Source: Escherichia coli
GTDB lineage: Bacteria > Pseudomonadota > Gammaproteobacteria > Enterobacterales > Enterobacteriaceae
Strand: one strand, 5' to 3'
Assembly (NCBI RefSeq): GCF_024298765.1
Contig: NZ_CP101210.1
Length of the DNA: 64,000 bases
Shown piece after piece: positions 33,714-38,723 of the stretch. Each line of letters starts with the position of its first letter. The first letter of the stretch is position 1. The position numbers and the translations under genes were made by a program. The notes under the pieces were generated by a model that saw nothing but the letters and a program-made list of their open reading frames with translations, was not told the origin of the DNA and did not search any database.

Positions 33714-34387
33714 CAAACGTTCTGATTGTTGAAGATGAACAGGCTATTCGTCGCTTTCTGCGCACGGCGCTGGAAGGCGACGGTATGCGCGTCTTTGAGG
33801 CCGAAACGCTGCAACGCGGCTTGCTGGAAGCGGCTACCCGTAAGCCAGATTTGATTATTCTCGATCTCGGCCTGCCCGATGGTGATGGGATTGAGTTTAT
33901 CCGCGACCTGCGCCAGTGGAGCGCGGTGCCGGTGATTGTGCTTTCCGCACGTAGCGAAGAGAGCGACAAAATCGCCGCGCTGGATGCCGGAGCGGATGAT
34001 TATCTGAGTAAGCCGTTTGGCATTGGCGAATTGCAGGCCCGTCTGCGCGTCGCTTTACGTCGCCACTCCGCCACCGCCGCGCCCGATCCGCTGGTGAAAT
34101 TTTCCGATGTTACCGTCGATTTAGCAGCTCGTGTGATCCATCGGGGCGAGGAAGAGGTGCATCTCACCCCGATTGAGTTCCGCCTGCTGGCAGTGTTGCT
34201 TAATAATGCGGGAAAAGTGCTCACCCAGCGCCAGCTCCTTAACCAGGTGTGGGGGCCAAACGCGGTCGAACACAGTCATTATTTGCGTATTTATATGGGG
34301 CATCTGCGACAAAAACTGGAACAGGACCCGGCCCGGCCTCGCCATTTTATTACTGAAACCGGTATTGGGTATCGGTTTATGCTTTGA
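33710..34387 (+). CDS. kdpE: response regulator KdpE
   Basis: 225 aa, GTG start overlapping kdpD stop; receiver plus winged-helix domains. Confidence 0.95.
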   Translation: MTNVLIVEDEQAIRRFLRTALEGDGMRVFEAETLQRGLLEAATRKPDLIILDLGLPDGDGIEFIRDLRQWSAVPVIVLSARSEESDKIAALDAGADDYLSKPFGIGELQARLRVALRRHSATAAPDPLVKFSDVTVDLAARVIHRGEEEVHLTPIEFRLLAVLLNNAGKVLTQRQLLNQVWGPNAVEHSHYLRIYMGHLRQKLEQDPARPRHFITETGIGYRFML

Positions 34388-34422
34388 ATATTAATTTTAA
34401 TACATCCTGCCTTTTATTAATT

Positions 34423-34451
34423 AAAGCCGTAATAATAAATACGGCTTTTTA
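34423..34451. terminator. rho-independent terminator after kdpE
   Basis: aaagccgtaataataaatacggcttttt hairpin + T-run. Confidence 0.6.
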
Positions 34452-34620
34452 TCTTAAACAACACACAAAAATAACAATTCAATATTTTATATTACTGAGT
34501 AAAAAGCTCATCATTAAATAAATTAAGATTGATCATTTTTTATTGATCACCTTCACAGTTCAACCGTATTTCCTGGATAGAATACCTTCACCTTCATTCA
34601 CATCAGGAAAGGTAAATTAA

Positions 34621-34725
34621 ATGGAAAATAACAGCCGCACTATGCCCCATATAAGGCGGACAACTCATATTATGAAGTTTGCTCATCGCAATAGCTTCGA
34701 CTTTCACTTCTTCAATGCCCGTTAG
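34621..34725 (+). CDS. speFL: speF leader (ornithine-sensing arrest peptide)
   Basis: 34 codons MENNSRTMPHIRRTTHIMKFAHRNSFDFHFFNAR upstream of speF. Confidence 0.85.
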   Translation: MENNSRTMPHIRRTTHIMKFAHRNSFDFHFFNAR

Positions 34726-34982
34726 TCTACCGACTAAGGGCACTTCAGCGTACAGGTCTTCCTGACTCTCTGTATTACAGGCATATGCCTGTATTCCGCA
34801 GTGCTCATTCTCTGTTAACCCTTGTATTATCAGCCACCGGACTGATAAGGGTTTCTGCATTCTGAAAAAAGCAAACTTCTGATTAATTTATCAGCGGGGT
34901 AACTTTGCTTTTTTTCCGGCACGATCGATTTCTCATTCGAGAAATTGAGGACCTGCTATTACCCAAAATAAAGAGATGGAAA

Positions 34983-37181: not shown

Positions 37182-38497
37182 GTCAGGCTAAATCGAATAA
37201 GATGGGCGTCGTTCAGTTAACCATACTGACGATGGTCAACATGATGGGCTCCGGTATCATCATGCTGCCGACAAAGCTTGCCGAAGTTGGGACAATCTCA
37301 ATTATCTCCTGGCTGGTGACAGCCGTAGGCTCAATGGCACTGGCATGGGCATTCGCAAAATGCGGTATGTTCAGCCGTAAATCAGGCGGTATGGGCGGTT
37401 ATGCGGAGTATGCTTTCGGTAAATCCGGGAACTTTATGGCGAACTACACCTACGGTGTCTCGCTGCTGATTGCTAACGTCGCGATTGCTATTTCGGCGGT
37501 TGGTTACGGCACCGAACTGCTCGGCGCGAGTTTGTCGCCAGTGCAGATTGGTCTTGCGACCATCGGAGTGCTGTGGATTTGTACCGTGGCTAACTTTGGT
37601 GGTGCGCGCATTACCGGGCAAATCAGTAGCATTACTGTGTGGGGGGTCATTATTCCGGTCGTCGGTCTGTGCATTATCGGCTGGTTCTGGTTTAGCCCGA
37701 CGCTATACGCTAACTCATGGAACCCGCACCATGTGCCGTTCTTTAGCGCTGTAGGTTCTTCCATCGCCATGACGTTGTGGGCTTTCCTCGGTCTGGAGTC
37801 AGCCTGTGCCAACGCCGAAGTAGTTGAAAACCCGGAACGTAACGTGCCGATTGCAGTTCTTGGCGGTACTTTAGGTGCGGCGGTGATTTATATCGTCTCC
37901 ACCAACGTGATTGCAGGGATAGTGCCTAATATGGAGCTGGCAAATTCAACGGCACCATTTGGCCTGACTTTCGCACAGATGTTCACGCCAGAAGTGGGTA
38001 AAGTCATTATGGCGCTGATGGTGATGTCCTGCTGCGGTTCACTGCTTGGCTGGCAGTTCACCATTGCCCAGGTGTTTAAATCTTCATCTGATGAAGGCTA
38101 CTTCCCTAAAATTTTCTCCCGTGTAACCAAAGTGGATGCACCGGTTCAGGGAATGTTGACCATTGTGATTATTCAGAGTGGATTGGCACTGATGACCATT
38201 AGCCCGTCACTGAACAGCCAGTTCAACGTGCTGGTTAACCTGGCCGTGGTGACCAATATCATTCCGTATATTCTGTCGATGGCAGCATTAGTCATTATTC
38301 AGCAGGTCGCTAATGTGCCACCATCAAAAGCGAAAGTAGCAAACTTTGTTGCCTTTGTTGGTGCGATGTACAGTTTCTATGCGCTGTACTCATCCGGGGA
38401 AGAAGCCATGCTGTACGGTTCCATCGTGACCTTCCTTGGTTGGACACTGTATGGTCTGGTCTCACCACGCTTTGAACTGAAAAATAAACACGGTTAA
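37178..38497 (+). CDS. potE: putrescine-ornithine antiporter
   Basis: 439 aa APC-family transporter, start overlaps speF stop. Confidence 0.95.
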   Translation: MSQAKSNKMGVVQLTILTMVNMMGSGIIMLPTKLAEVGTISIISWLVTAVGSMALAWAFAKCGMFSRKSGGMGGYAEYAFGKSGNFMANYTYGVSLLIANVAIAISAVGYGTELLGASLSPVQIGLATIGVLWICTVANFGGARITGQISSITVWGVIIPVVGLCIIGWFWFSPTLYANSWNPHHVPFFSAVGSSIAMTLWAFLGLESACANAEVVENPERNVPIAVLGGTLGAAVIYIVSTNVIAGIVPNMELANSTAPFGLTFAQMFTPEVGKVIMALMVMSCCGSLLGWQFTIAQVFKSSSDEGYFPKIFSRVTKVDAPVQGMLTIVIIQSGLALMTISPSLNSQFNVLVNLAVVTNIIPYILSMAALVIIQQVANVPPSKAKVANFVAFVGAMYSFYALYSSGEEAMLYGSIVTFLGWTLYGLVSPRFELKNKHG

Positions 38498-38509
38498 TAA
38501 AGCAAAGTA

Positions 38510-38543
38510 AAAAAGGGCGATTGAATGGTCGCCCTTTCTGTTT
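38510..38543. terminator. rho-independent terminator after potE
   Basis: aaaaagggcgattgaatggtcgccctttctgttt. Confidence 0.6.
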
Positions 38544-38574
38544 GTTGACAAAGAGTTCTTTATTTATGCCGCAT

Positions 38575-38723
38575 CCGGCAGGTGTAGGATCCAAACGCGG
38601 TCGGACACAGCAACTATTTGCGTAATTATATGAGGCATTTGCGACAAAAACTGGAACAGGATCTCGCCCGCCCCGCCATTTCATTACTGAAACCAGTATT
38701 GGGTATCGGTTTATGCTTTGAAA
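38575..38723 (+). pseudogene. duplicated 3' end of kdpE (about 150 bp fragment; resembles what I recall as ybfI in K-12)
   Basis: Strong nucleotide similarity to 34240-34390 including the stop codon context. Confidence 0.7.

Follow-up and report, generated by a model that had tools for sequence, protein, structure and literature searches.

In a 64,000-nucleotide stretch of Escherichia coli DNA (contig NZ_CP101210.1, hereafter the window), the genes speFL, speF and potE lie between two copies of the 3' end of kdpE. This arrangement raises the question of how the end of a gene came to be duplicated around a neighbouring cassette, and whether the duplication records the arrival of that cassette at the locus. 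Here, the window was compared with 5,426 complete E. coli genomes and with 80 other Enterobacterales kdpE loci, a sample that does not extend to Salmonella, Shigella, E. fergusonii or a number of Escherichia clades.

The region can be described as a series of modules between kdpE and pgm, for which the PGAP annotation was taken from a record identical to the window. The kdpE gene (33710-34387, plus strand; ORF list and PGAP) is intact and encodes a response regulator of 225 amino acids with the Pfam domains Response_reg and Trans_reg_C. It is followed on the same strand by an open reading frame that PGAP names 'leader peptide SpeFL' (speFL, 34621-34725), by the inducible ornithine decarboxylase gene speF (34983-37181; PGAP, with the Pfam OKR_DC_1 families found on a homologous gene) and by the putrescine-ornithine antiporter gene potE (37178-38497; ORF list and PGAP). 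A hairpin terminator 3' of potE, term1 (AAAAAAGGGCGATTGAATGGTCGCCCTTT), was located at 38509-38537 by a two-strand terminator scan and by sequence comparison. Next to it, a sequence that we call A and half of a REP element (CTGTTTGTTGACAAAG...TGCCGCATCCGGCA) occupy 38538-38580 on the plus strand and run into the second kdpE copy, kdpE' (38579-38722, plus strand). Then comes a DUF2625 pseudogene, ybfG (38737-39239, plus strand), identified by PGAP, tblastn, blastn against K-12 and a Pfam DUF2625 match on the intact allele. In the window, the tblastn match to ybfG spans residues 88-216 alone, and this strain, when compared with K-12, has also lost 252 bp at 38852/38853, which damages the pseudogene further. 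The lipoprotein gene ybfP (39280-39774; PGAP, tblastn 95%) is on the minus strand. Sequence comparison placed sequence A', followed by a REP pair (BIME), at 39796-39924 on the plus strand, and the pgm-side terminator term2 (AAAAAAGGGCGATCTTCCGACCGCCCTTTTT) at 40645-40676. Between these two lies an IS200C element (39925-40644, minus strand; tnpA in PGAP), a 720-nt insertion relative to K-12, which is specific to the strain type of the window and is located outside the repeat structure. The conserved right neighbour of this variable gap is pgm (40690-42330, minus strand; PGAP and tblastn).

Local alignment of the two kdpE ends pairs segment 34244-34388 with segment 38579-38722 as direct repeats, with 128 of 145 bases identical (88%), 16 mismatches and one 1-nt gap. 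The alignment score is 109, far above the scores of 200 shuffles (10.1 +/- 1.3, maximum 14), which rules out a chance or low-complexity origin. A repeat search of the window recovers the same pair as two families with spacings of 4335 and 4334. The first copy consists of the last 142 nt of kdpE, the TGA stop codon and one further A. The similarity crosses the stop codon and stops one base beyond it (TTTGAA), and the final 27 nt are identical in the two copies. According to the ORF list and PGAP, speFL, speF and potE are the sole genes between the repeats. The initial annotation, which had noted a resemblance of 38575-38723 to the kdpE end at 34240-34390, including the context of the stop codon, and had described the kdpE ends as bracketing speFL-speF-potE, is thus confirmed on these points.

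The second copy is what remains, without function, of a kdpE 3' end. It is already known, being annotated in K-12 MG1655 as the pseudogene ybfI (b4636; 716721-716870), a 150-nt kdpE-like 3' fragment flanked by ybfG and potE. The window is collinear with K-12 here by blastn, and the fragment has the position of ybfI between potE and ybfG. It retains the final 145 of the 678 nt of kdpE, the first 533 nt being missing. When read in the frame of kdpE, it has a TGG to TAG change and a 1-nt deletion, and it is therefore a pseudogene. PGAP labels it 'winged helix-turn-helix domain-containing protein, frameshifted, missing N-terminus' and, in other genomes, as a pseudogene of a partial winged-helix protein. 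The in-frame K-12 fragment matches Pfam Trans_reg_C with E = 6e-8 over profile positions 42-77 of 77. A literature search on E. coli ybfI found no paper, the matches listed all concerning a same-named gene of B. subtilis, and neither that search nor one on speF, potE, kdpE and pgm found anything that describes the potE-kdpE' junction.

Compared with K-12 ybfI, the fragment of the window has lost one more nucleotide and belongs to the other allele type in its 3' half. Among the E. coli genomes, the allele of the window is the rarer one, with 71 genomes at 99% identity or above versus 1,646 at 90-95%. The K-12 fragment differs from the kdpE of the window at 9 positions of the first 60 nt and at 1 of the last 85 (Fisher p = 0.0016), and the window and K-12 have the two allele types the other way round. 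These patterns suggest that kdpE and the fragment have exchanged sequence by gene conversion. The unconverted part of the fragment is about 15% divergent. Base-by-base reading of 12 loci of the window's haplotype showed that window-type and K-12-type fragments have the joint and three fragment-specific changes in common. The distinctive changes of the fragment are non-synonymous or introduce a stop and are absent from any functional KdpE compared, which points to decay and not to foreign ancestry. The nearest kdpE alleles to the fragment are those of E. coli (88-91%), all 80 other species being further away (at most 86%). The 3' half of kdpE is the most polymorphic stretch of kdpDE, with a polymorphism that climbs from about nt 350 of the gene. 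An imported foreign kdpE tail with a sharp edge at position -145 was rejected, since there is no sharp polymorphism boundary at that point.

At least five structural haplotypes, named S, S_A, X, P and L, occur between kdpE and pgm in E. coli. The S haplotype, found in 3,197 of the 5,426 genomes, is kdpE-speFL-speF-potE-terminator-pgm and has no fragment. S_A is the same arrangement with potE-term1-A-REP pair-term2-pgm; it was predicted from the tandem model described below and then found in 2 of the 5,426 genomes by a chimeric query, with a term1|A junction identical to that of L. Two haplotypes are without the cassette. One is X, kdpE-DUF2625-ybfP-A'-REP pair-term2-pgm, also present in 2 of the 5,426 genomes (CUWW10 and GF4-3); the other is P, kdpE-REP pair-ybfP-A'-REP pair-term2-pgm, with 247 genomes of the same 5,426. 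The speF-potE genes are absent from 247 genomes, or about 4.6% of complete E. coli. Both the window and K-12 have haplotype L, which is composed of an S_A unit and an X unit in tandem: [kdpE tail-speFL-speF-potE-term1-A-half REP] | [kdpE'-DUF2625-ybfP-A'-REP]-term2-pgm. Each of the two units has the last 145 nt of kdpE at its start and A-REP at its end. About 1,830-1,850 of the 5,426 genomes carry the fragment (1,851 by one count), with DUF2625 (ybfG) and ybfP present every time, and L is found on both left-hand haplotypes, H1 and H2. When the context of the intact DUF2625 protein was looked up by exact match, every locus obtained was an E. coli locus of the L type, and none had the arrangement of a foreign donor. 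At the X junction, the intact kdpE is joined at TTTGAA|AAAAGTGG to the flank that follows kdpE' in L; in CUWW10 and GF4-3, kdpE is thus followed directly by AAAAGTGGCA...DUF2625, as is the fragment in the window. The kdpD, kdpE and pgm products of CUWW10 are identical to those of K-12, so that CUWW10 looks like a recent derivative, and it keeps the K-12 kdpE allele up to 19 nt from the end of the repeat.

The A sequences make a second repeat pair, in which 38538-38580 and 39796-39838 are identical at 33 of 43 positions, a divergence of about 20%. They find each other by blastn in both directions (82-84%, E about 1e-7 to 1e-8). A' sits upstream of ybfP, and A is a diverged copy of it. The last two bases (CA) of the half REP coincide with the start of the kdpE homology, and this is the novel joint. 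The two distinct repeat pairs are circularly permuted, in the order kdpE tail ... A-half REP | kdpE' ... A'-REP, that is, left end to right end followed by left end to right end, and the single-unit forms (X, n = 2; S_A, n = 2) have the same outer junctions. The terminators term1 and term2 are themselves direct repeats of each other. The term1 type, associated with potE, occurs in L, S_A and E. albertii, and the term2 type, associated with pgm, occurs in P, X, L, S_A and N, where N denotes the Escherichia arrangement that has no cassette and nothing but a REP pair and a terminator between kdpE and pgm. To the right of ybfP, the REP pair and term2 are the same sequence as this kdpE-pgm spacer. 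In the S form of E. coli, the left flank of term1 is fused to the body of term2. No S-type E. coli with the potE-type (term1) loop was found, the best full-length match being 95.8%; S genomes with this loop would have been proof of recurrent deletions between term1 and term2.

Outside E. coli, the cassette is found at the same kdpE site without a kdpE duplication in E. albertii, Citrobacter, Enterobacter, Kluyvera, Lelliottia, Atlantibacter and others. The outgroup E. albertii carries S and not L. In enterobacteria that lack the cassette, kdpE is followed by pgm and not by the flank seen in the window. A sensitive blastn search for a second kdpE piece downstream of kdpE in 85 loci found it in E. 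coli L-type loci only, and neither DUF2625 nor YbfP nor sequence A was found in the 80 other Enterobacterales kdpE loci. A plasmid match to potE was considered as a possible mobile cassette and rejected, as it is a 360-nt piece of the gene that lies between copies of IS26. Klebsiella indica (locus L021) has the final 38 codons of potE immediately after the kdpE stop codon and before pgm. This is also a gene-end relic at the same hotspot, but it is the scar of a cassette deletion, whereas the E. coli fragment is a duplicated kdpE end.

The repeat, the pseudogene state of its second copy, the five haplotypes with their counts, the A/A' pair and the shared junction sequences are direct observations, whereas what kind of event produced them, in which direction and in what order, can only be inferred. 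L is probably the tandem joint of the alternative S_A and X units, made by one illegitimate join between a half REP and position -145 of kdpE, with the fragment as its scar. The only novel joint would be that of the half REP with kdpE, which has the CA microhomology, and a single illegitimate join at REP together with a homologous exchange could place both units side by side. A circularised fragment might have integrated by a single crossover of the Campbell type, or an unequal exchange or tandem duplication might have taken place between S_A-type and X-type chromosomes. Afterwards, the truncated kdpE copy would have decayed and traded sequence with kdpE by gene conversion. REP elements are common sites of novel junctions in E. 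coli (22 of 90 junctions; PMC3161906), and incoming linear DNA can circularise in this species and integrate by a single crossover (PMC3240628). The topology would fit equally well with the cassette as the incoming unit or with DUF2625-ybfP arriving beside a resident cassette. Since L contains three nested pairs of direct repeats (kdpE/kdpE', A/A' and term1/term2), its modules can be deleted; deletion is predicted to yield X, S_A and S, each of which occurs in nature. X and S_A, at 2 of 5,426 genomes each, may be deletion products of L instead of its parents. The retention of the K-12 allele by CUWW10 to within 19 nt of the repeat end is not what would be expected from a simple crossover in the longest block of identity. 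The divergence of the unconverted fragment (about 15%) and of A from A' (about 20%) looks older than what is typical within E. coli, so that L may predate the diversification of the species. The term1|A junction requires a second illegitimate event, which counts against a model with a single join.

Other histories of the locus have to be weighed against the tandem joint of S_A and X. L could have been born within one chromosome, by a tandem duplication of an X-type locus from kdpE position -145 to the REP after A, followed by replacement of the first DUF2625-ybfP by the cassette and term1, with L then as a hub that gave rise to S, S_A and X through deletions between the repeat pairs. We regard this as possible, although rather unlikely. 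The joint of half REP and kdpE is the expected product of a REP-ended tandem duplication (PMC3161906), the three products that deletion should give are all found, the left flank of term1 sits on the body of term2 in S-type E. coli, kdpE' and A are divergent enough from their partners to suggest that the event is old, and L occurs on both H1 and H2. However, the replacement is an extra step with an illegitimate junction of its own, a duplicated DUF2625-ybfP is seen in no genome, the outgroup E. albertii has S, and the term1-type loop is kept by no S form of E. coli. The initial annotation had suggested that the speF-potE unit entered by a recombination event that duplicated or carried a kdpE terminus. 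In the strong form of this reading, the cassette would have come, at its first entry, with a kdpE 3' end of its own that took the place of the resident one. It is true that the repeats bracket the cassette exactly, that there is a cassette-free 'empty site' where a single kdpE end adjoins the same right flank, that the highly polymorphic kdpE 3' half would travel with the adjoining variable region, and that a circle of cassette and kdpE tail entering an X-type locus by a single crossover would yield the exact topology (PMC3240628). But the presence of the cassette at the same site without the duplication in other genera and in most E. coli (the 3,197 S genomes) argues against the repeat as a mark of the original entry. 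In addition, A/A' is unexplained unless the donor already had term1-A-REP, an arrangement specific to E. coli; DUF2625-ybfP as the incoming unit gives the same topology; and the allele boundary at -145 is not sharp. We thus consider a first-entry footprint unlikely. What stands of the earlier suggestion is a recombination scar. Its proposed comparison with loci lacking speF-potE gives a divided answer, as kdpE is followed by the flank of the window in CUWW10 and GF4-3 but by pgm in other enterobacteria.

An import of the fragment from another species, together with DUF2625-ybfP and from a chromosome where DUF2625 follows kdpE, would account for the 12% divergence of the fragment from the resident kdpE, for the G+C content of DUF2625-ybfP (0.41-0.47, lower than that of kdpDE or pgm) and for the patchy distribution within E. 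coli. It is nevertheless quite improbable, as DUF2625, ybfP and a second kdpE piece are absent from all 80 other Enterobacterales loci, the fragment is nearer to E. coli kdpE than to that of any other species, its distinctive changes are of the decay type, and the kdpE-DUF2625 arrangement occurs inside E. coli. Genomic islands may insert at a gene's 3' end and rebuild that gene, and the kdpE ends could be read in this way as attL and attR of an integrase-mediated island. An accessory block flanked by direct repeats of a gene 3' end, a precise 'empty site' and 27 identical terminal nucleotides are all consistent with such an island. However, there is no integrase, excisionase or other mobility gene among speFL, speF and potE, the mismatches are scattered over the 145 nt with no short exact core, the cassette occurs in other lineages without repeats, and the half REP and the duplicated ybfP upstream region at the left edge of the second copy are not an att product; we find this reading extremely improbable. 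Transposons characteristically leave a short (2-14 bp) exact duplication and have terminal inverted repeats and a transposase. A transposon with a target-site duplication was rejected here, the repeat being 145 nt long and 88% identical, with neither terminal inverted repeats at the ends of the cassette nor a transposase. Finally, about a third of E. coli might keep L because the three nested repeats are a selected switch for shedding and regaining the acid-inducible speF-potE or DUF2625-ybfP, a proposal that we hold to be very doubtful. If it were true, recA recombination would operate at useful rates and the scar would be a selected feature and not debris.

The fragment is a rearrangement scar in a REP-rich variable intergenic gap and belongs to the ordinary plasticity of bacterial genomes. 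It matters little beyond bookkeeping, its by-products being descriptive. In K-12-type strains, the 145-nt direct repeats around the speF-potE module could mediate its loss, and they are relevant when the presence or absence of speF-potE is scored as a trait or when the region is engineered. The locus resembles islands and prophages with attL/attR in having gene-terminus repeats around accessory genes, an intact upstream copy and a one-copy 'empty site'. Unlike these, it has no recombinase and no short exact core, it has a second, unrelated A-REP pair that is circularly permuted with the kdpE pair, and its cassette is mostly free of repeats across lineages. The likeness to single crossovers of circularised DNA and to homology-facilitated illegitimate recombination (PMC3240628) is that an exchange and an illegitimate joint together duplicate a homologous segment around an insert, although at the kdpE locus the mechanism is read from the topology alone. 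The joint also resembles the junctions of REP-associated duplications and amplifications (PMC3161906), as it lies in a REP, has a microhomology of 2 nt and takes the form of a tandem duplication. It differs from those junctions in that the two units of L have different gene contents, and in that about a third of natural genomes have L as a fixed structure, in contrast to a transient laboratory amplification.

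The window is 100% identical to E. coli strain 104 (NZ_CP029164), and the direct repeat of the kdpE end that the initial annotation placed on both sides of speFL-speF-potE (hereafter the cassette) is real. Local alignment pairs 34244-34388 (the final 142 nt of kdpE, its TGA stop and the A after it) with 38579-38722, the downstream fragment kdpE'; 128 positions match, 16 do not and there is a single 1-nt gap (88%). The alignment score was 109, against 10.1 ± 1.3 for shuffled sequence, and a separate repeat search of the window recovered the same pair at a spacing of 4335/4334. 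Between the two kdpE ends lie speFL (34621-34725), speF (34983-37181), potE (37178-38497) and a hairpin terminator, term1 (38509-38537). Read in the kdpE frame, kdpE' has lost 1 nt and has TAG in place of TGG; the K-12 version of the fragment, which is in frame, is still matched by Pfam Trans_reg_C. No function is plausible for the fragment.

The arrangement found in the window and in K-12, haplotype L, contains three nested direct-repeat pairs, the kdpE tail and kdpE', A and A', and term1 and term2. A and A' are short diverged sequences that each adjoin a REP; A with its half REP (38538-38580) and A' with its REP (39796-39838) are identical at 33 of 43 positions, and reciprocal blastn hits agree. 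The terminators term1 and term2 (40645-40676) have AAAAAAGGGCGAT and the stem in common. The order is kdpE tail, cassette, term1, A and half REP, followed by kdpE', DUF2625, ybfP, A', REP pair, term2 and pgm. L is composed of two tandem units, each with a kdpE tail at its left edge and A-REP at its right edge. Its single novel joint, TGCCGCATCCGGCA followed by GGTGT, connects the half REP to kdpE position -145, CA being common to both. The sequence of REP pair and term2 right of ybfP also fills the kdpE-pgm spacer of cassette-free Escherichia. The flank 3' of kdpE' (AAAAGTGGCA...) is the same as that of intact kdpE in two genomes of haplotype X, and kdpE' is therefore the remnant of a kdpE that formerly adjoined DUF2625. 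In the window, the DUF2625 pseudogene (ybfG) lacks, at 38852/38853, 252 nt that K-12 has, and K-12 ybfG has an internal stop; an intact 216-aa DUF2625 is found in strain MB10, in the X-type genome CUWW10 and in ten further loci. An IS200C copy (39925-40644, tnpA on the minus strand) separates the REP pair to the right of ybfP from the pgm terminator; K-12 lacks it and has 20 nt at that site.

Five structural haplotypes of the gap between kdpE and pgm were defined by reading example loci and by junction-specific query searches of 5,426 complete E. coli genomes. Haplotype S (kdpE-speFL-speF-potE, 56 nt with one terminator, pgm) occurs in 3,197 genomes, examples being O157:H7 and an O2:K2:H1 strain, and L in about 1,830-1,850. 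The fragment itself was found in 1,851 genomes, and 1,826 of these match over the full junction. Haplotype P (247 genomes) has kdpE, REP pair, ybfP, A', REP pair, terminator and pgm without the cassette, and X (2 genomes) has intact kdpE, intact DUF2625, ybfP and pgm, also without it. The fifth, S_A (potE-term1-A-REP pair-term2-pgm; 2 genomes), was predicted by the tandem-unit model and then found with a chimeric query; its term1-A junction is the same as in L. Complete absence of speFL-speF-potE concerns about 4.6% of genomes (247/5,426, including M12, L087, and XJ5.2, L088), in which the kdpE stop is TAG, followed by the REP pair, ybfP and pgm. About 140 genomes were left unclassified; at least some of them have IS insertions or IS-mediated deletions, MB10 being one example. 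In MB10 (L003, locus 5670-6600), an IS1-associated deletion running from inside speFL to just upstream of DUF2625 takes out speF and potE along with the fragment. In L102 the 4.3 kb separating the two kdpE ends contain an insertion of ~777 nt; in L093 this interval is 230 nt shorter, with no speF called. A 78-kb plasmid of E. coli EC100 (NZ_CP182310.1; L103, locus 6837-7196) carries a 360-nt potE fragment, 92% identical to chromosomal potE, trapped between IS26 copies beside a class 1 integron.

The fragment is closest to E. coli kdpE alleles (88-91%), compared with 84-86% for kdpE of E. albertii, E. whittamii and L008, another Escherichia species representative, and 83% or less for other genera. 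Across the 80 species, the protein sequence of the KdpE C-terminus hardly varies, and none has the distinctive changes of the fragment (stop, H to N, I to N), which therefore reflect decay rather than a foreign origin. Two allele types, alpha and beta, exist for the last ~85 nt of the repeat. In the window, kdpE is alpha and the fragment beta; K-12 is the other way round, as is each of ten more L-type loci that were read. Compared with kdpE of the window, the K-12 fragment has differences at 9 of the first 60 nt and at only 1 of the last 85 (Fisher p = 0.0016). Sequence has therefore been exchanged, either between the two copies or among the alleles that circulate in different strains. Polymorphism of kdpE has no boundary at -145. 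The 3' half of kdpE (34093-34392) has ~90-95% identity among E. coli, against 96-100% for the rest of kdpDE, which fits recombination breakpoints of the adjoining variable region landing inside kdpE. Next to it, 34393-35500 (the kdpE-speFL spacer, speFL and the 5' end of speF) exists as two deeply divergent haplotypes. In the first ~800 nt 3' of kdpE, identity is 97-100% among the window, K-12 and E57 and only 64-82% between these three and O157:H7 or a B2 strain, returning to 95-99% deeper into speF. In the second of these left-hand haplotypes, an additional ORF of 44 codons overlaps the sequence upstream of speFL. Both are found with and without the kdpE fragment, and L and S occur on each.

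A KdpE scan of the genome collection gave 80 Enterobacterales loci with 10-kb flanks, in which the conserved order is kdpD-kdpE-pgm(-)-seqA(-)-ybfF. The genes speF-potE lie between kdpE and pgm in E. albertii, some Citrobacter, Enterobacter, Kluyvera, Lelliottia, Atlantibacter and others, and are absent from E. whittamii, L008, Pantoea, Serratia, Dickeya and others. A second piece of kdpE is missing from all 80 loci, as are DUF2625, ybfP and sequence A. The kdpE duplication is therefore no general signature of cassette entry. The flank that follows kdpE' in the window lies directly after kdpE in the two X-type E. coli, but in the cassette-free loci of this set pgm is found there. Across Enterobacterales, the gap is a hotspot with many different occupants. 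It holds speF without potE in Pseudocitrobacter faecalis (L026), 7-10-kb inserts in Entomohabitans and Klebsiella spp. (L045, L046, L048, L058) and a ~500-nt insert in several Enterobacter-like and Dickeya genomes (L024, L028, L047, L059, L062, L067), which appears to code for a small hydrophobic protein starting MS(A/I)WL(V/I)YALLSA. In Klebsiella indica (L021:10672-10790), the final 38 codons of potE stand right after the kdpE stop, before pgm; this remnant is a deletion scar of a cassette once there and then lost.

The tandem of S_A-type and X-type units is best explained by homologous exchange combined with one illegitimate join at a REP. A circularised fragment could have integrated via a single crossover, and circularisation with single-crossover integration of incoming linear DNA is documented in E. 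coli (PMC3240628). Unequal exchange between two chromosomes would be another route, and a third would be a REP-ended tandem duplication in which the content of one unit was then replaced. Of the 90 novel duplication junctions reported in a study of E. coli, 22 were at REP elements (PMC3161906). As to direction, arrival of the cassette carrying a kdpE tail, the version of the initial annotation, whose interpretation is partly supported, is allowed, and so is the mirror event, in which DUF2625-ybfP arrived with a kdpE tail beside a resident cassette, giving the same product. Neither is favoured, because kdpE polymorphism lacks a boundary at -145, L and S share both left-hand haplotypes, and X and S_A are rare. 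Given this rarity, X and S_A may just as well have arisen from L by deletion. The kdpD, kdpE and pgm products of CUWW10 are identical to those of K-12, although the K-12 allele of its kdpE extends to within 19 nt of where the repeat ends.

The terminators bear on the origin of S. The term1 loop type is that found after potE in E. albertii and S_A, and the term2 type is that on the pgm side in cassette-free Escherichia species and in E. coli P, X and S_A. In E. coli S, the potE-side flank of term1 is fused to a term2-type hairpin; E. albertii S keeps the term1 type. These types fit S forms as deletion products of a two-terminator ancestor, a reading that stays suggestive only because no E. coli S genome with a term1-type loop was found.

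Homologous recombination between the kdpE-end repeats is predicted to allow loss of speF-potE, and two genomes have precisely the product expected of it. PGAP labels kdpE' a partial, frameshifted 'winged helix-turn-helix domain-containing protein' pseudogene. In the literature collection that was searched, no paper turned up on E. coli ybfI, its name in K-12. In the curated MG1655 record, ybfI (b4636) is a pseudogene between potE and the DUF2625 pseudogene ybfG; kdpE' is this already annotated pseudogene, an unremarkable rearrangement scar in a variable intergenic hotspot rich in REPs.
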